Assembly: GCA_963833985.1 (NCBI GenBank)
Contig: CAWIAD010000002.1
Coordinates: 4,576,001 to 4,640,000 of the forward strand
Reading direction: 5' to 3'
DNA from: an uncultured Planctomycetaceae bacterium
GTDB taxonomy: Bacteria > Planctomycetota > Planctomycetia > Isosphaerales > Isosphaeraceae
DNA length: 64,000 nt
Shown here: positions 39,126-47,164 of the stretch, in pieces
How positions within the stretch are numbered: position 1 is the stretch's first letter
How the letters are laid out: every line of letters starts with the position of its first letter
Program-made: the position numbers and the translations under genes
Notes under the pieces: generated by a model
The model's database searches: none
What the model was told of the DNA's origin: nothing
Seen by the model: only the letters and a program-made list of their open reading frames with translations

Positions 39126-39725
39126 TCATTTCACACTGCCGGCCGCCTGGATGAGCGCGTCGGTGGTATGACGCTTCACATATCCTTCCAGGAAAAGCTT
39201 GGCCCGGATGATACCGTGTGAGTCGACGATGAACGTCCCCGGATACGGCACGCCCACGGCCTTGCCCTTCGCCGCCGGGTTGCGAATGTGGTAGTCCTCG
39301 ATGGTTCGGCTCTCCGGATCGGAAAGGAGCGGGAAGGTGATCTTCATCCGATCGGAAAACCTCTTGAGGACGGCTGGACTGTCATAGCTGATGCCGACCA
39401 CCTGGACGCCCGCTTCCTCGATCGACTTCAGGTCTTTTTGCAACTGGACCAGTTGCGTGCGGCAGAAGGGTCACCAGTCGGCCGAGCGGTAGAAGACGAG
39501 CGCCACCTTGCCCTGCTTGAGGAACTCGTCGAGCGTGCGCGGCTTCCCTGCCTGATCCGGGAGCGTGAAGGCGGGTGCTTTCGTGCCCGTTTCCAGGCCG
39601 GACTTCTCCGGGGGTGCGGGCCGCGGCGTCTGCTGCGGCCAGGCGGCCGCGCAGGAAACCAGGGCCAGGGCTGTGGCGAGCGTCAGCGTGGCGGCCAGGG
39701 CCGGCCGGGATCGCAATTCAGTCAT
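39126..39725 (-). CDS. Secreted AhpC/TSA (peroxiredoxin-like) selenoprotein with UxxC motif (UGA at 39471-39473 read as Sec)
   Basis: ORFs 39471..39725 and 39126..39443 are in the same frame. Read-through gives APAFTLPDQ...LVFYRSADW-U-PFCRTQL...VVGISYD...FPLLSD...PGTFIVD. GGAGA RBS upstream; SECIS-like hairpin downstream of the UGA. Confidence 0.85.
39440..39456 (-). promoter_or_regulatory. Putative bacterial SECIS hairpin
   Basis: mRNA GCAACUG-GUC-CAGUUGC is a perfect stem starting 14 nt after the UGA, with GGUC at the apex. Confidence 0.75.
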
Positions 39726-39757
39726 GATGTGTCGGTCTCCAGGTTCGAGGAATCTGT

Positions 39758-40666
39758 TCAGAGGCCCGCGTACCAGTCGTATCCCTGCTCGGCCCAGTAA
39801 TCCCGCGGGCGGTTGTCCGTGAAGCGGATGGTACCGACCCGCTTGATATTCTTGATGCCATACTTCACGGGGATGATCAGTCTCAGCGGCGCACCATGCT
39901 CGGCACCCAGCGGGCGGCCGTTCATCTCATAGCAAAGCAGGGTCTGGGGATGCAAGGCGCTGGCTGAGTCCAGGCCCACGTAGTACGCCCCGTCAGGAGT
40001 TTCGACGCCCACGTATTCCAGGAGGTCCGCCGGCGGCCGAGACGGTTCGTAAGGCTGCCCGGAACGAGCCGACAGCCCGCACTGCGCGGCCAGATCTGCC
40101 AGGCGGGCGCCTGCCCATGAGACCACGGTGCTCCAGCCCTCGATGCATTTCAGCTCGGTCGTTTGCTCAACCCGGGGGAGCGATCGAACGTCGTCCAGCG
40201 TGCAGAGCAGCCCCGTGTCCGGTGCCCGGGCGCCGGCCAACTTGAGTCGCCAGGACCCCGGATCGAGCCCCTGAAGGCCAGCATCGTCCCCGGCCATGCC
40301 GAGCACTCCGTTGACTCGCGGGTTCCGGCTCCGGCTCCTGGGGAACTCGGGTGCCAGGCGGGACGAACTGAACAGCGCACGCGCCAGTCGCTCGTTGCCT
40401 TCCAGAACCCTGCGCAGGGGCCAGATCAGCTCGTCGTCCGCGCCTCGGGTGACAAGCCAGCGCCAGGCGCCGAAGCCTCCCAGAGCGGTCAGCCCGGCTG
40501 CCGCGAACCCGCGGCGCGTCATCCGGCGCAGCCGGACGTCCGTCGTTTCAAGATCGACGGATGCTGCCACGCTTGCGCATGCGGCCTCAGTTTGCGGCCG
40601 AGCAGCCGAGCCGCCATTCTCGGCTTCGCCGACCCGCGTGGCAGTCTCTTCTTCAGCCCCGGACAT
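39758..40666 (-). CDS. Tat-exported molybdopterin-dependent oxidoreductase (sulfite oxidase family, MsrP/YedY-like)
   Basis: TRRGF Tat motif, LKCIEGWS (Mo-ligating Cys), HPQTLLCYEMNG, HGAPLRL, KYGIKNIK, DYWAEQGYDWY. Confidence 0.9.
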   Translation of the reverse strand: MSGAEEETATRVGEAENGGSAARPQTEAACASVAASVDLETTDVRLRRMTRRGFAAAGLTALGGFGAWRWLVTRGADDELIWPLRRVLEGNERLARALFSSSRLAPEFPRSRSRNPRVNGVLGMAGDDAGLQGLDPGSWRLKLAGARAPDTGLLCTLDDVRSLPRVEQTTELKCIEGWSTVVSWAGARLADLAAQCGLSARSGQPYEPSRPPADLLEYVGVETPDGAYYVGLDSASALHPQTLLCYEMNGRPLGAEHGAPLRLIIPVKYGIKNIKRVGTIRFTDNRPRDYWAEQGYDWYAGL

Positions 40667-41336
40667 GCCCATAAGGTGCATCCTGATCTTGTGCAAGCTC
40701 GACACCGATGACCATCGCACGCAGGTTGTTCCACCCCGCCCGGATCACCTGGGCAATGTGAATCACGAAGAAGGCCACGTACCCCATGGTCAGCAGGAAG
40801 TGCCAGTAGCGCGCTTGCGGGTAGCCGCCCAGCAAGGCGGTGAGCCAGGCCAGTTGCACGGGCTTGTAGATGGCAAGCCCCGTCAGCAGCGATCCCAGCC
40901 CCATGGCGATGACGCCCGTATAAGCGAGGCGCTGCGCTCCGTTGAACTTGCGGCGCGGCAATGGCTCCTTGCGGAGGCCGAGATCGTGCAGAACGACGTT
41001 CCAGGCCTCGCGCGGGGTATCCCGATTGGGAACCAGAAAGCGCCACTCCCCACTCACTACGGTGTAGGCCACGTACAGGACGCCGTTGACGGCAAACAGC
41101 CACATGAACGCGAAATGCCAGGCCATTCCCTCCGCCAGCCGGTGCGGCACATTCAGCCCTTGGTACAGCCAGCCGGGAAAGAACCTGAACAGGGTCAGCC
41201 GGCCGAGCCGGATTGCGTACACGTCGTTGGCCCAGTAGATGAGCAACCCACTGTAGATCATCACCGCCAGGACGGGCGCGTTCAGCCAGTGAAAGAGCCT
41301 GGTCGCCAGCGCGTGTTTCTTTTCAAGCCGTGCCAT
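40653..41336 (-). CDS. Cytochrome b/b6 domain membrane protein, likely partner of the molybdoenzyme
   Basis: RLFHWLN, WHFAFMW, KFNGAQRLAY, ARYWHF, HIAQV; four TM helices carrying His heme ligands. Confidence 0.9.
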   Translation of the reverse strand: MARLEKKHALATRLFHWLNAPVLAVMIYSGLLIYWANDVYAIRLGRLTLFRFFPGWLYQGLNVPHRLAEGMAWHFAFMWLFAVNGVLYVAYTVVSGEWRFLVPNRDTPREAWNVVLHDLGLRKEPLPRRKFNGAQRLAYTGVIAMGLGSLLTGLAIYKPVQLAWLTALLGGYPQARYWHFLLTMGYVAFFVIHIAQVIRAGWNNLRAMVIGVELAQDQDAPYGHVRG

Positions 41337-41412
41337 CGGATGGCTACTCCGGTTGCCGGAATCCAGGGGATGGGTCCGCCAGTCGCCCGGCCCCTGTCCG
41401 GGCCGATGCCAA

Positions 41413-41664
41413 TTACTTTGATGCGCCTTCCATCTTGCCTTTGTCCATGCCGCCCATCTTGTCCTTGTCCATGCCGCCCATCTTGTCCTTGTCCATGCCG
41501 CCCATCTTGTCCTTGTCCATGCCGCCCATCTTGTCCTTGTCCATGCCGCCGTCCGTTTTGACCGCGGCGCCGGGTTCGGGTGCCTCGTTGTTGCAGCCCG
41601 TGGGCGGGAGGACCAGGCAAGCGGCCAGTGCCGTGCCCATGATCATGCGCAGTGGGTTCCGCAT
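41413..41664 (-). CDS. Met-rich MXKDX-repeat lipoprotein
   Basis: Signal peptide ending LPPTGC, followed by five GGMDK(D/G)KM repeats. Confidence 0.85.
   Translation of the reverse strand: MRNPLRMIMGTALAACLVLPPTGCNNEAPEPGAAVKTDGGMDKDKMGGMDKDKMGGMDKDKMGGMDKDKMGGMDKGKMEGASK
41431..41550. repeat. 24-bp tandem repeat x5 (coding)
   Basis: Unit catcttgtccttgtccatgccgcc starts at 41431, 41455, 41479, 41503 and 41527; the first copy has two mismatches. Confidence 0.95.
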
Positions 41665-41792
41665 CGTCGTAGACCTCGTGAGTGAACGGACCGAACTCTG
41701 GTAGGGCGAAGTGCGGCCCGATCGAGCCGCAAGACCTTCGCGTCAGGTGCTTCGGGCGACCACTCCCAGTGCTCCCCGCACCAGGAGTCTCT

Positions 41793-42365
41793 TCATTCAT
41801 AGAATTTCGCGAGCAAGCAGTGGGCGACGGCCGCGAATCGCAACGGGTCGTGATAAGTTCTCGCCACGAGCATGGCACCCTCGAGCGTGGAGAGGACGAG
41901 CCGCGCTTCCTTGCGAGCGCTTTCGGTGAAGCGCAGGACTCCGGCCTTCCTGCCCTCGAGCAGTACCCGGCTCAACCAGTTTTCGAGGTCGTCAAACGAC
42001 GCCCTCAGCTCCTCGCAGTTGACGGGCTCCAGGGTGTCCGCGTCGGAGGCGAGCATGCCGAAGGGGCACATGCGATTCCCGGCCTCGATGGTGCTCTGGA
42101 AGAGAGCGATGAACTGCCCGAGCTTCTTCCTGGCATCGGTCGCCTGGCGATCGACCTCCTGGAGTGCGAGCGACACGCGCTGGCGGTGCCGCGCGATGAG
42201 CGCGCGGCACAGATCGGCCTTCGTGGGAAAGTGATAGTGCAGGCTCGAGGTCCGGATCTGTAGCCGGCTGGCCACGTCCTTGATGCTGAACCCGTTGTAG
42301 CCGCGCGTCTGGAGGAGCTGCTGTGCAACATCGAGTATCATGGACGCCGTGTCGTTTCTCTCCAT
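41793..42365 (-). CDS. TetR/AcrR family regulator (NemR-like)
   Basis: ILDVAQQLLQTRGYNGFSIKDVA...SLHYHFPTKADL HTH, then RMCPFGML and TLEGAMLVAR. Confidence 0.9.
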   Translation of the reverse strand: MERNDTASMILDVAQQLLQTRGYNGFSIKDVASRLQIRTSSLHYHFPTKADLCRALIARHRQRVSLALQEVDRQATDARKKLGQFIALFQSTIEAGNRMCPFGMLASDADTLEPVNCEELRASFDDLENWLSRVLLEGRKAGVLRFTESARKEARLVLSTLEGAMLVARTYHDPLRFAAVAHCLLAKFYE

Positions 42366-42374
42366 GGCGAAAGT

Positions 42375-42396
42375 CTACCGATCGATCGATCGGTAG
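42375..42396. promoter_or_regulatory. Perfect 22-bp palindrome, putative TetR operator
   Basis: ctaccgatcgatcgatcggtag equals its own reverse complement and lies 9 bp upstream of the TetR start codon. Confidence 0.75.
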
Positions 42397-42548
42397 TCAA
42401 GCAGCGATGCGATGATCCCCTGGCTCGAGGGTACCGATCGAATACCGCGCGGTCCGCGAGCGTCATGCTGGAACGCAGCGACGTCGACCATACGCCTTTT
42501 GCGACGGCTGCGCGGGACGAACCACCTGAAGCTGGGAGCACACCCGAC

Positions 42549-43397
42549 ATGAAACCCATGATCTCCGTTCTCGCCGGTTGCCTCGCGGTCGCAATGCTTG
42601 CCGGCCAGGCCCGCGCCGGCGATGAGCCCCGCTCGAAGCCGGCACGCATGGTCCTGGTGGAGCTCTTCACGTCGCAGGGCTGTGACATGTGCCCGGAGGC
42701 GGAGCGGCTTCTGGGCGCGCTCGCGTTACAGAACCGTAACGTGGTCCCCCTCGCGCTGCATGTCGATTACTTCAACGATCCCTGGAAGGACCCCTTTTCC
42801 GACAAGCTGCACAGCCAGCGCCAGGCGTCGTACAATGAGATTTACCGCGGGCCCAAGAACGCCCAGTATGGCCTGTACTACACGCCCATGGTCATGGTGG
42901 ACGGGACCCTGCCGGTGAACGGCCGCGATGCCAGGGGCATCCAGAATGCCGTCAAGCAGGCCGCCAGGCGCTCGCCCCAGGTGAGCTTGGCGGCAACGCT
43001 GGGCCCCGGCGCGGAAGACCGCAAGCGTGATCTGCGGCTGCGGGTCTCCGCGTTGACGCCCGAGCTGAGCGGACGTGAGGTCCTGGTCTGCGCGGTGCTG
43101 CGCGACGACCTGGTCGTGACCCAGGTTCCCTCCGGCGAGAATGCGGGCAAGGCCTTGACGGCACGATTCCCCGCGCGTTCCACTCAGTTTGAACTGGTCC
43201 GGCTGGACGGGAAGAAAGAAAGCCGCTTGCACTTCCCGTTTCAGCTCCAGCCCGCGTGGAACGCCAAGAATCTCGGTATCGTGGTATTCGTGCAGGATCG
43301 CGAGGCGGGGACCGTCTACCAATCGGCCCTTGTTTCCTGGGTGGAACCAGAGGGCGTCCGTGCCGGTGGTCGCGAGACAGGCGCTCACCGGCAATGA
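42549..43397 (+). CDS. DUF1223 family secreted thioredoxin-fold protein
   Basis: Signal peptide; VELFTSQGCDMCPEA, LALHVDYF, WKDPFS, YTPMVMVDG, GENAG. Confidence 0.85.
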   Translation: MKPMISVLAGCLAVAMLAGQARAGDEPRSKPARMVLVELFTSQGCDMCPEAERLLGALALQNRNVVPLALHVDYFNDPWKDPFSDKLHSQRQASYNEIYRGPKNAQYGLYYTPMVMVDGTLPVNGRDARGIQNAVKQAARRSPQVSLAATLGPGAEDRKRDLRLRVSALTPELSGREVLVCAVLRDDLVVTQVPSGENAGKALTARFPARSTQFELVRLDGKKESRLHFPFQLQPAWNAKNLGIVVFVQDREAGTVYQSALVSWVEPEGVRAGGRETGAHRQ

Positions 43398-43450: not shown

Positions 43451-45818
43451 ATGGGTTCAGAGTCCACCTCCAGGAACGACCCCGAACCGGTGGACGACCT
43501 TCCGCGCTCCGGCTCGCCGCAGCCGGCCAGGGCGCCCGAGCAAACCTACTGCGATGCCACGATCGAGTTCCGGCCCGGAGAGGTGGGCAACGCCGAGGGG
43601 CCGCTCTCAGGCAGGACGCTCTCGCTTGCCGAGTATCCGTTTCTGGAACCTCCCCGCGGTGGCGACGAGCTGGGCTGGCTGGCGCACTACCGCGTGCTCA
43701 GACCGCTCGGCTCAGGGGGCATGGGGCTCGTGTTCCTGGCCGAGGACACGCACCTGCTTCGACCCGTGGCCCTCAAGGTGATTCGCCCCGAGCTGGCGGG
43801 CAACCCCGAGGCAGCGCCCCGCTTCCTCCGCGAGGCGCGCACCGCGGCCGCCATCAAGCACGACAACGTCGTGACCATCTACCACGTGGGCGAGGCGCGC
43901 GGCGTGTCCTACCTGGCCATGGAGTATCTCCAGGGCATTTCCCTGGCAGCCTGGCTCGATCGCGGCCGGCAGCCGTCCATCGAGCTCCGCCTGCGCATGG
44001 GCCGGGAAGTGGCCTCGGGGCTGGCGGCCGCGCACCGGCTCGGCCTGGTGCACCGCGACATCAAGCCCGCGAACATCTGGCTGGAGGCCCCCAGCGGGCG
44101 GGCCAAGATCCTCGACTTCGGCCAGGCCAGGGCCGAGAGCGAGGACACGCAGATCACCCGCTCCGGCGCGATCATGGGTACGCCGGCGTTCATGTCCCCC
44201 GAGCAAGCCGAGGGCAATCCGGTCACGTTCGCGACCGACCTGTTCAGCCTGGGAGGCGTCCTCTACCGGCTCTGCTGCGGCCGCCTCCCCTTCGAGGGGA
44301 AGACCATCCTTTCGGTGCTGAACGCCCTGGCCACCCAGACGCCCACCCCTCCGCTGGCGTTCCGGCCCGAGACGCCCGAGCGCTTCAGCGCACTGGTGAT
44401 GCGGCTCCTGGCGAAGAGCCCGCAGGCCCGTCCACCCTCGGCCCAGGCCATCGTCGATGAGATCCGCGCCATCGAACGACAGCTTGCCGCCTCGAGGCAG
44501 CGGACGAGCATCACAACCGATACCGAAACGGGCAGCAAACCCGTGGAGACCATGCAGGTCAAGCCGGTGGATGCCGCGAGCCTCAGAGCCCTGGTACACG
44601 CGCGGCTTGCCGACCGCCGGCCCAGCCGCTGGCTCATGCTCTCTGCCGTGGTGCTCATTGTGGGAGTGCTGACTTCGGCGGCCTGGCTCAGCCACGGCGG
44701 ACCGGGGCTGCATCGCGGGCCGGAGCGCGGCTCCCCACTGGCGGGACGCGGATTCCGCAGGCCTCCCGCTCCCGAAGACTTCGTCAAGGACCCGCCGCCC
44801 GACGAGCCGCCGCCACCTCCCCGGCCACCCGGTGAGTTCGGACCGCGGTGGTCCGGCGCGCCCCGCCGAGCCCTCGACCCCGAACCGCCAGATGCGAAAG
44901 CTCACGACCTGGATCAGGACATGAAGCGCCTGGAGGCGGCTGGCGTGGTGCTGAGGCCGCCGGACGCGAAGCAGGAAGCGCAACGCTCGGAGGCGGCCGC
45001 AGCGAAGATACCCGCCTCCGACCCGGGCGCCATGGCTGCGCCCAACGCACCAGGGCTGGCTCTCGCACCGGCCGGTCCCGCGGGGCCGGGCGCGTCAGGT
45101 CCGACAGCCGCATCAGGTCCGCCAGCCACATCAGGTCCGCGAGCCGCGTCAGGCGGGTCCGCAAGGCCGGCCACTGCCGGCCCGGCGGCAGAGACGAGGG
45201 CGGCATCCTGGGGCAAATTCATCGATCTCGACGGCGATTGCTCGTTCACGCTCGATGAGGCCGATCAGACCGCGACGATGCAGGTGCCGGGAAGGCCGCA
45301 CGCCCTCAGCGCAGAGCTCGGCCGCCTCAACGCCCCGCGCATCTTGCAGCCGGTGAGCGGCGATTTCGAGGCCTTTGTTCGCGTGCTGGGTACCGAGCAA
45401 GTCGCGGGTCGAGCGACCATGACCGAGTATCCGCCCTACCACGGGGCGGGGATCCTCCTCTGGCAGGATGCCGGCAACTACGTCCGGCTGGAGATCGCCA
45501 CCGACCTCCAGCGCGGCAAACCTCGCCACTACGTCAACTTCGAGTATCGCCAGGGATATCGGCTTGCATCCTCCCAGGGTCAGGTGGCGCCGACCGGCTC
45601 GGCCTACCTTCGGTTCGCGCAAGAAGAACGCGGTCGCGGCCTCGTTCAGCCCCGACGGCGCCCGGTGGATATCCTTTCCCGCATTGACCGTGAATCTTGA
45701 CCCCGACAGCCAGGTTGGAGTGGTCGCAATCAACACGTCCAGCAAGCCTCTGACCGCGCGCATCGAGGGTTTTCGCGTCGCGGCGGCCAGGCCAGAGCGC
45801 AAGGAGGATCACCCCTGA
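43451..45818 (+). CDS. Membrane Ser/Thr protein kinase with C-terminal beta-sandwich (DUF1349/ConA-like) domain; apparent frameshift near 45620
   Basis: LGSGGMG, VALK, HRDIKPANI, DFG, GTPAFMSPEQ and TDLFSLG; TM WLMLSAVVLIVGVL. The C-terminus continues in ORF 45468..45818 (SFSPDGARW...VGVVAIN). Confidence 0.85.
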
Positions 45819-45854: not shown

Positions 45855-46927
45855 TTACCGGCTGATCCCGGCCCACTCGTGGACGTGATCCACAAGACTT
45901 GTCACGGCGTTGGTGGCCATGGTGATGGGACACCAGGGCGGAGGGCCGTCCGCGAAGCAGTCCTGAGAACTGCCGGGACTGTCCGACTGGGTCGTGTCAA
46001 CGGGCGTGGGAGTTGACACCGAGGCCAGCGCCGTGGGGCGCTCCTGGTGGCTCGCCGGCGCGGCCGGCCGGTGCGCCGCCACGATAGCGCCGCCGGATAC
46101 CGCGCCGACGAGTAGCACCGCGGCCGCTGTTCTGAGCCTGCGCAAAAGCATGGTTTTCAAAACTCCTTGGGTCAGGGTGAGTATTGAACGGGAAACGATC
46201 TGGGACGCGGAAAACCGCAGCGCTGTCTGGAGCGTGCTGTCGATCAGCCCGCGGTCCGCGGGCAAGAGCGGGCCGCCGAGCATGGTACCCGCAAGCAGGG
46301 CCGGCACTCCGAGCACTCCGCGGCGCTCCAGCCGGGTCCGGAGTAACTGCCGGGCGCGGGAGAGCCGCCCGCTGAGCGTACCGACCGGCCAGTCCAGCAG
46401 CCGAGCGGCCTGCTCGTGGGTCTTGCCTTGCAGGTGGCAGAGCACGATGGGCGCCCGGTAGCGGTGCGGTAGCTGATCGAGCTCCTCGTGCACCAGCGGC
46501 CAGACCTCGTGCGGCTCCTCGCCGGTTTTCTCCTGCGGCTGCACGGCCAATGCAAGTTGCAGGTCCATACCCGTGTGATGCCGCGCGGCGACACTTCGGC
46601 GCGCTGGGCCGTGCGGTAGGCCACGCTGCAAAGCCACGGACCGAGCGATTCCTCGCAGTGCAGTGCGTGTGCTCTCCGCAGCAGCACCAGGAACGTCGCC
46701 TGGAACGCATCGTCCACGTCGTGCGAGTGGCGCAGGACCTGGCGGCAGACGGCCAGCACCATCGGACCATGTCTCACGATGAGCTCGCGGAAGGCGAGTT
46801 CCCCGGTGACATCGCGAGCCCGGACAAACCGGTCCAGTAGCTGAGCGTCGCTCAGCCCGGCCATCGTGCCGGACGTCCAGAGCGTCTCGATCTCCCCGAT
46901 TCTCCGCGCTGGATGACGCCCCATCAT
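45855..46927 (-). CDS. ECF sigma-70 factor, planctomycete type with C-terminal TM extension; apparent frameshift near 46590
   Basis: SDAQLLDRF, AFRELIVRHGPMVLAVC and DDAFQATFLVL (region 2); LPHRYRAPIVLC...VGTLSGRLSRAR (region 4); TM AAAVLLVGAVSGG. Confidence 0.85.
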
Positions 46928-47164
46928 GATTGTCCTGCCCCGCCCTCTGCACCGTCTGCTTCCACCATGTAATGCAGCGAGCCGCCCGATTCATACAAAA
47001 TTCTGGAAAAACGGCGGTCCCTGTGGTCATCTATCAGGACTTTTCGCGGGTCGTCACCTGGTCCGGATGATGCCGACTACCCGCAGAGAGCATGTGGCTT
47101 GTAGAATCCAGCGCGGCTCGACCGGAAAGCGCCAGCTCAGAGGGTTAAGGACGGAACTTTCGGA

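Follow-up and report, generated by a model that had tools for sequence, protein, structure and literature searches.

A Probable Oxidant-Inducible Envelope Repair Operon in a Planctomycete, with a Methionine-Rich Predicted Lipoprotein, a Cytochrome–Molybdoenzyme Pair and a Predicted Prx-Like Selenoprotein

We analyzed 64,000 nucleotides (the window) of an uncultured Planctomycetaceae bacterium (assembly GCA_963833985.1, contig CAWIAD010000002.1, positions 4,576,001 to 4,640,000), in which five closely spaced minus-strand genes encode a TetR-family regulator, a methionine-rich (Met-rich) repeat protein, a cytochrome b561-type membrane protein, a molybdenum (Mo) enzyme of the sulfite-oxidase fold and a Prx-like protein interrupted by an in-frame TGA. 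The locus is probably an oxidant-inducible, TetR-repressed envelope repair operon, combining a methionine sink with reduction of methionine sulfoxide by the cytochrome–Mo pair and, in parallel, selenocysteine (Sec)-dependent thiol repair. Judged from gene content, the three central genes, which encode the Met-rich peptide, the cytochrome b561 and the Mo enzyme, form a variant of the MrpX-YedZY/BcrXQP sink-and-repair system, as a first-pass annotation of this DNA had proposed: an exported, Met-rich, charged peptide adjoins a cytochrome-then-Mo gene pair. The strongest functional evidence is a gene swap with canonical msrPQ. Established here are the gene set, the conserved TGA with its hairpin, the lipobox-like Cys, the family operator, the msrPQ interchange and a partial linkage of the genes.

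Results

The regulator (190 aa; TetR_N/TetR_C_13, with a NemR-like C-terminal domain) is encoded at 41793..42365, the Met-rich repeat protein (83 aa; a predicted lipoprotein and predicted oxidant sink) at 41413..41664, the cytochrome (227 aa; PF01292) at 40653..41336, the Mo enzyme at 39758..40720 (true start probably 40672 or 40666), and the Prx-like thiol:disulfide oxidoreductase (199 aa with read-through; W-U-P-F-C motif) at 39126..39725, all on the minus strand; a CxxC protein of the DUF1223 family is encoded divergently on the plus strand at 42465..43397 (likely start 42549). An open reading frame (ORF) check found all six ORFs where the first-pass annotation had placed them, and the re-measured spacings of the minus-strand genes (128 bp, 76 bp, an overlap and 32 bp) match as well. 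Pfam assigns TetR_N/TetR_C_13, Ni_hydr_CYTB, Oxidored_molyb, AhpC-TSA and DUF1223 across five of the six genes, and no Pfam family to the Met-rich peptide. Export signals were read from sequence and hydropathy alone: the Mo enzyme carries a TRRGF twin-arginine motif, the leader of the Met-rich peptide ends in a lipobox-like G-C, the Prx-like and DUF1223 proteins have hydrophobic N-termini, and the cytochrome has four hydrophobic segments. A search of sequencing runs listed no RNA data set for this DNA and one DNA run, with a share of 0.09.

The samples used for comparison were 251 genomes of the class, 121 genomes of the family and 80 metagenome homologues of the Prx-like protein; it should be noted that linkage counts include many incomplete genomes and kin that are not independent. 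A TetR search returned 25 matches in 24 family genomes. Eight of these adjoin the same clade of Mo enzymes, six head a canonical msrP with the same operator, and at three (L272, L293, L307) only part of the island is present. All six MsrP proteins score above the NCBIfam cut-off, as does MsrQ in all five loci scanned for it (the sixth is cut by the contig end), and in three of the six, a gene for the same Met-rich lipoprotein separates tetR from msrP. Since this TetR, with its operator, is found ahead of a canonical msrP in six genomes, the cytochrome–Mo pair and msrPQ appear to be interchangeable.

Adjoining canonical msrP, we also observed fusion proteins of 570-580 aa that combine MsrQ with an FAD/NAD-binding reductase and a 2Fe-2S ferredoxin domain (L291:3940-5667, L295:2493-4205, L296:7931-9661, L297:3380-5113, L298:8102-9817). 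The fusion may be a single-chain, NOX-like electron supply for MsrP; among the literature matches listed for such a fusion there were general NOX papers only.

The mature part of the Met-rich peptide has 60 aa, including 10 Met (17%), with 42% charged residues and a predicted lipidated Cys24. A repeat peptide is found within 800 nt upstream of the cytochrome gene in 34/42 non-self planctomycete loci (two of the 42 are frameshifted, and one, at a contig end, has no cytochrome gene), and a lipobox-like Cys (G-C) precedes the repeats in 33 of these 34 peptides, which is consistent with the lipid-anchored methionine sink that had been predicted; the window peptide has Pro at -3. In Acidobacteriota and Armatimonadota/Abditibacteriota loci, the peptide is encoded 3' of the Mo gene and has an A-x-A type signal with no lipobox-like Cys; therefore, the lipid anchor appears to be planctomycete-specific. 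No Met-rich peptide was detected in Hymenobacter loci under the filter used. The genome of the window (own genome) contains lgt, moaA and a DsbD domain. In another locus (L165:2864-3316), Met-rich repeats are fused N-terminally to a thioredoxin-like CxxC domain, with a Mo gene and msrA nearby.

For the catalytic domain of the Mo enzyme, comparison with E. coli MsrP and with four proteobacterial enzymes gives identities of 34-38%, i.e., 34% to MsrP and 35-38% to the SigF-linked clade, which these four represent (including a SigF-NrsF-cytochrome-Mo-MXKDX locus, L252; Azospira and Brucella sequences were left out). A first tree was discarded because a long N-terminal read-through and long branches distorted it, and the tree was rebuilt on the catalytic domain, leaving out two own-genome paralogues without a motif match; its bootstrap is not fully settled. 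MsrP and the SigF-linked group form separate, strongly supported branches in this 28-row tree (support of the SigF-linked branch, 100/99), and by this phylogeny the Mo enzyme is in a clade of its own, apart from both. Close relatives (45-62% identity, among the best 80 of 333 matches) are from Acidobacteriota, Armatimonadota, Abditibacteriota and Hymenobacter. Cys and Glu residues aligned with MsrP Cys102/Glu104, which we take to be the Mo ligand and its neighbor, are invariant in 79/79 rows, and an Asn is present in 76/79 rows no more than one column from MsrP Asn44-45, beyond the stretch aligned by the hidden Markov model; Asn45 presumably stands where sulfite oxidases have Arg. Among the literature matches, none confirmed the part played by MsrP Asn45 or Glu104. 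The top structural match is E. coli YedY/MsrP, which is also the top profile match. In the own genome, a profile search found no MsrP above the cut-off. MsrA or MsrB genes adjoin the same Mo clade in several loci. The cytochrome b561 is predicted to be the conduit of electrons from quinol to the Mo enzyme.

The TetR was read in the first-pass annotation as Cys-bearing and NemR-like, and this holds for its TetR_C_13 domain and for Cys100, which aligns with NemR Cys106 and is invariant in 12/12 rows. In NemR, Cys106 is the bleach-sensing residue and Lys175 its sulfenamide partner (PMC7464077). The nearest TetR structures are 2g7s and 3on4. A motif scan found two predicted sigma-70 promoter sites with 0.5 expected; the predicted promoter of tetR (TTGACT-17-TAGACT, minus strand, 42372..42400) ends 6 nt before the ATG, so the tetR transcript is likely leaderless. 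The same -35/-10 layout precedes tetR in related loci (L034, L036, L038, L039, L249, L272, L280, L291).

A 22-bp perfect palindrome lies over this promoter (42375..42396). In the class sample, all eight non-self TetR-Mo loci carry a conserved 20-bp family operator, the palindrome TCTACCTACTAGTAGGTAGA, located either between the -35 and -10 elements ahead of tetR or immediately 5' of the Met-rich gene; in leave-one-out scoring, it reaches 22.6-32.4 bits in 8/8 loci, with the next best site at or below 12.9. A TetR-cytochrome-Mo locus of Agrobacterium that was not used for training scores 25.9 bits, and further TetR loci give 17.3-33.8 bits in 15/16 cases, compared to a best score of 15.3 for loci without TetR, with 112 scanned. 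The window palindrome is likely a diverged form of this TetR operator. A matrix scan of the own genome gave no convincing second site (best, 16.4 bits); therefore, no wider TetR regulon is claimed. In the Agrobacterium locus (L249, on a plasmid), a TetR of the same subfamily (34%) and the operator stand ahead of three genes, for an exported protein annotated as hypothetical, for a cytochrome b and for a Mo enzyme that belongs to another clade. In one genome (G254), the TetR heads TlpA-like and Sec genes without the Mo trio.

The regulators of the island vary: among 32 non-self family loci, TetR is found in 7, a sigma-54 activator in 15, and both in none, and elsewhere an extracytoplasmic function (ECF) sigma factor with a zf-HC2 anti-sigma is found. 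The sigma-54 activator, which has GAF and PAS domains and in many cases a small gene for a STAS-domain protein behind it, takes the place of TetR before the Met-rich gene (L035, L047, L052, L058, L273-L279, L281, L283, L284, L289, L290). The window itself also holds a long, planctomycete-type ECF sigma factor at 45855-47030, apparently frameshifted, with region 4 in one ORF and the N-terminal part in an overlapping ORF (46244-46927).

The single in-frame TGA of the Prx-like gene (39473-39471, i.e., 39471..39473 on the minus strand) very likely encodes selenocysteine, judged from conservation, a hairpin and the sel genes, as had been predicted for the last gene of the series. The own genome has selA, selB and selD above cut-off and a tRNA-Sec, and selD itself holds one TGA. 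The TGA is present in 24/25 orthologues of the class sample (the remaining one has TGC) and in 41/42 matches of the family sample, the exception being a partial match that starts after the codon; the position is Cys in 67 of the metagenome homologues. A 7-bp hairpin with a GUC loop (39440..39456, minus strand) begins 14 nt 3' of the UGA and fits what we take to be the bacterial selenocysteine insertion sequence (SECIS), i.e., a hairpin just 3' of the UGA with a G in the loop. Across 24 of 25 loci in which the motif was found, 168/168 cells are paired, with 12 two-sided changes at synonymous positions. This pairing was reached by 0/500 shuffles and slid controls gave 0-45%, although these genomes are related and the figure should not be read as a probability. 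In the metagenomes, the outer six pairs are complete in 13/13 TGA forms (4 distinct hairpins) versus 0/67 Cys forms, in a set of 80 that is biased towards Cys by the query. selA is present in 22/23 genomes with the TGA form versus 137/251 overall, its base rate being high in the two main families. Folding of the UGA region alone is not more stable than that of shuffles (z 0.4 to -1.4) and hence uninformative, so the call of selenocysteine was decided by covariation. The single planctomycete Cys form (L075, genome G194) retains its SECIS-like hairpin in full, and selA is present in that genome, which suggests a recent change from Sec to Cys.

The first-pass annotation had further seen a seleno-peroxiredoxin in this protein, forming a selenocysteine peroxidase arm, and this identity was rejected. 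The fold fits, since the structural model (predicted local distance difference test score, 95) has a BCP/AhpE fold closest to PrxQ/BCP/AhpE, with a template modeling (TM) score of 0.86 to Bcp4 and AhpE. The loop RSADWUPFC, however, contains neither the PxxxT/SxxC nor the TxxU peroxiredoxin motif, and the position of the catalytic Arg is Pro in 101/103 aligned rows; with a UxxC motif and without the Pro, Thr/Ser and Arg that mark the family, the protein is by motif no peroxiredoxin. In reviews, peroxiredoxins of the TxxU type and Prx-like thiol:disulfide oxidoreductases of the UxxC type form separate entries, although both belong to one Pfam family (PMC13188914, PMC2398784); given this separate listing, the protein is, by its motif, a member of the known Prx-like UxxC class of thiol oxidoreductases.

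A second predicted selenoprotein, TlpA-like with the motif FASW-U-xGC and a downstream hairpin of its own, is often encoded directly beside the Prx-like Sec gene (L066, L040, L065, L068, L071, L076-L079, L081; L275-L279, L289). A search of the own genome at E 1e-15 gave no match to it. The own genome does have another homologue of the Prx-like protein, which aligns in two adjacent pieces (G000:C2:4069811-4070196) and could contain a stop or a further Sec codon.

The linkage of these genes was surveyed in the family sample, where the Mo gene occurs in 32 genomes, the Sec gene in 41 and both in 19; the two are within 10 kb of each other in 11 of the 19 (7 genera, window included). TetR, Mo and Sec genes come together in only 2/121 genomes, and a fixed five-gene unit was rejected on this ground. 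The claim of a single Mo, heme and selenium unit run by a TetR is thus overstated in view of this rare coincidence, the commoner sigma-54 activator and the swappable neighbors; what stands of it is a non-random linkage of both the TetR and the Sec gene to the trio, in the proportions given above. A thioredoxin-fold gene of some type lies within 8 kb of the Mo gene in 24/32 family loci (DUF1223 in 19, the Sec gene in 10, the second, TlpA-like Sec gene in 8, and others in 7-8 each), and, by this count, the Sec gene is one of several swappable thioredoxin-fold genes of the island. Outside the family, the class sample has the Sec gene within 8 kb of the Mo gene in 0/11 loci.

Downstream of the DUF1223 gene, on the plus strand, a profile match identifies a Ser/Thr kinase (43451..45700). 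A close homologue is found within 8 kb of the Mo gene in 8/32 family loci, and L272 has the same divergent DUF1223-kinase layout; the kinase travels with the redox island and DUF1223 in L035, L047, L058, L272, L274, L275, L279, L282 and L283. The matches of an Atlas search were DUF1223 clusters only.

Discussion

The mechanism that we infer, in which all activities, the paths of the electrons and the oxidant that acts as inducer are inferences, would be as follows. TetR would bind the palindrome over its own promoter, and modification of Cys100 by an oxidant or electrophile, by analogy with NemR, would free it. The tethered and probably unfolded Met repeats would then be oxidized to methionine sulfoxide, as expected from MrpX. 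Electrons from quinol would pass through the cytochrome to the Mo enzyme, exported by the twin-arginine route, which would reduce the sink and other envelope proteins, in line with the msrPQ swap. The UxxC motif suggests that the Sec protein acts as a thioredoxin-type reductant, likely repairing oxidized cysteines and probably fed by DsbD, not by the cytochrome. The Sec gene and DUF1223 would be optional modules. A farther-reaching version seems doubtful to us: an undescribed planctomycete envelope redox station, in which a tethered Met sponge, a third MsrP-like clade and one or two exported selenoproteins would be wired together, the selenoenzyme being fed by the cytochrome or clearing chlorinated or oxidized thiols, under a new NemR-like regulon.

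Several observations weigh against the repair operon. The window TetR is only 19% identical to NemR, and NemR Lys175 is replaced by Arg (Arg169 in the window) in all 11 non-NemR rows. The window operator scores 6.6 bits and is outscored by 13 other genomic sites, although two genomes of the same genus are likewise diverged (15.4 and 4.1 bits). Eight of the 25 TetR matches, more distant ones, head unrelated genes (UDG-like, aldo-keto reductase, MOSC, RND, or none identifiable). The Mo enzyme reaches 85.8 bits versus the MsrP cut-off of 207 (NF003767), its TM score to YedY is only about 0.6 with sulfite oxidases not far behind, and no measured activity was found for any member of this Mo clade. 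The job could also be shared by two further, more distant cytochrome-Mo pairs of the own genome; these belong to other clades (G000:C2:6566732-6567984, G000:C1:1194909-1196066), and no Met-rich exported peptide is found beside either. As for the peptide, eight of the 42 planctomycete loci have none upstream of the cytochrome gene, the window lipobox, LPPTGC, is non-canonical, and the window peptide has no match to TIGR02953 (pentapeptide MXKDX; cut-off 41), a model that its positional counterpart in L050 passes with 46.9. Finally, the Sec and Mo genes are not close in 8/19 genomes (one at 20 kb, one at 433 kb, six on different contigs), the Mo pair is found in 0/80 metagenome Prx-like loci, many of them short, and the Sec gene is often paired with another Sec protein instead.

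Other explanations differ in what the selenoprotein and the Mo enzyme would do. One follows the first-pass annotation and takes the unit to be specific for hypochlorous acid (HOCl), with the selenoprotein as a peroxidase acting on the oxidant itself to remove it. The similarity of the Prx-like fold to PrxQ/BCP/AhpE (TM 0.86), the response of MrpX and BcrXQP to HOCl and the bleach-sensing Cys retained by the TetR speak for it; we nevertheless consider it unlikely, since the PxxxT/S motif is missing, Pro occupies the place of the catalytic Arg, true Sec peroxiredoxins are TxxU while UxxC proteins are classed as thiol:disulfide oxidoreductases, and the relative in uropathogenic E. coli (UPEC) is induced by peroxide (PMC8550376). 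The own genome has a gene of the chlorite dismutase family, which may presumably be a heme-synthesis paralogue; for this reason, it was set aside and not used as evidence for a source of HOCl. Alternatively, the locus could serve detoxification rather than protein repair, with the Mo enzyme acting on small S-oxides, N-oxides or some other oxyanion, which it would reduce, while Cu/Ag would be bound and buffered by the Met-rich lipoprotein. Met-rich motifs bind Cu(I), the Mo enzyme is of a separate clade, related rhizobial cytochrome-Mo pairs adjoin genes annotated as heavy-metal two-component systems, and many Hymenobacter loci lack the Met-rich peptide under the filter used. That canonical msrPQ can stand in the same place, after the same regulator and peptide, makes this improbable, as do the msrA/msrB neighbors, and no metal efflux family is recurrent among the planctomycete neighbors.

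The Sec gene and DUF1223 could also be mere passengers, carried along as the genes of a redox island are shuffled and linked to the trio neither by function nor by transcription. This would explain why 22/41 genomes with the Sec gene have no Mo orthologue found by this query, why gene order (and once the strand) varies, with many of the linked genomes being close kin, and why the Sec gene often pairs with the second, TlpA-like Sec gene. We hold it to be a poor candidate in view of the proximity of Sec and Mo genes in 11/19 genomes of 7 genera, with gaps of 32 and 163 bp in two, the thioredoxin-fold genes in 24/32 family loci, and the lack of a terminator-like site between the Mo and Sec genes. 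It is very improbable that the TGA simply ends translation and leaves the last gene defective: the unremarkable folding of the hairpin region would agree with it, whereas the conservation of TGA where 67 homologues have Cys, the covarying hairpin and the full sel machinery do not.

The repair operon, if correctly read, shows that the methionine sink-and-repair strategy is used beyond proteobacteria, in planctomycetes, and the genomic swap argues that a widespread Mo clade, present also in Acidobacteriota, Armatimonadota and Hymenobacter, does the job of MsrP. It also supplies a defined candidate TetR operator. Prx-like UxxC selenoproteins, many of which are orphans and are cut in two at the TGA by gene callers, gain a functional context in one case. 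Our understanding of what the MrpX-YedZY-type system does stays unchanged.

Comparison with Known Systems

The closest described system is MrpX-YedZ1Y1 of Azospira suillum, where MrpX (20% Met, 44% charged) responds to HOCl (Melnyk 2015, PMC4436054). The neighbors reported there for the cytochrome-first clade are mrpX (14), sigF/nrsF (6), histidine kinases (3), thioredoxins (5) and msrA/B (3). The window shares with it the exported, Met-rich, charged peptide and a Mo gene that follows the cytochrome gene, and the two also have in common swappable regulators and neighbors of the thioredoxin-like and msrA/B kinds, and a SigF/NrsF/MXKDX locus (L252) has the same cytochrome-Mo order and annotation. 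The Azospira genes are under SigF/NrsF, whereas the window has TetR, a predicted lipoprotein peptide and a Sec-bearing thioredoxin-fold neighbor; its Mo enzyme is 35% identical to the SigF/NrsF/MXKDX-linked example and of a different clade, the Azospira enzyme itself not being in this comparison. The same three-gene set is found in Brucella BcrXQP, which is controlled by BcrS/AbcS, HOCl-induced and co-transcribed (PMC8315932), and in UPEC C3566-C3568, controlled by OrhKR, peroxide-induced and co-transcribed (PMC8550376); BcrXQP also has the X-Q-P order. These are under ECF16 sigma or two-component control, and the accessible parts of the two papers mention no TetR, lipid anchor or selenoprotein. 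Nothing on the window architecture appears in the accessible parts of PMC9600549, PMC9751292, PMC13488963 and bioRxiv 243626, a paper on the reclassification of ECF sigma factors gave no passage of relevance, and no selenoprotein, TetR or planctomycete form of the system was among the literature matches listed (subscription journals are mostly outside this search).

With E. coli MsrPQ, the window shares the sulfite-oxidase fold, twin-arginine export, the aligned Cys/Glu and the same slot in sister loci. It differs in the level of identity (34%, below cut-off), a shorter C-terminus, reversed gene order and the cytochrome partner, which is a PF01292 b561 instead of the ferric-reductase-type MsrQ. 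The Prx-like protein resembles known Prx-like UxxC selenoproteins (PF00578) in domain, motif, SECIS-like hairpin and Cys homologues; unlike these, it is predicted to be exported and is often encoded within a methionine-repair island, a context for which no report of such a selenoprotein was found. The regulator has the TetR_C_13 domain, the aligned sensing Cys and an operator overlapping its own promoter region in common with E. coli NemR, and differs from it in overall sequence (19% identity), in Arg for Lys175, in operator and in regulon. Thioredoxin-like neighbors and swapped regulators are already noted for the MrpX-YedZY system in the accessible part of PMC4436054, and the features that appear to be new are the predicted lipid anchor and the NemR-like TetR with its conserved candidate operator, present in the window in diverged form.

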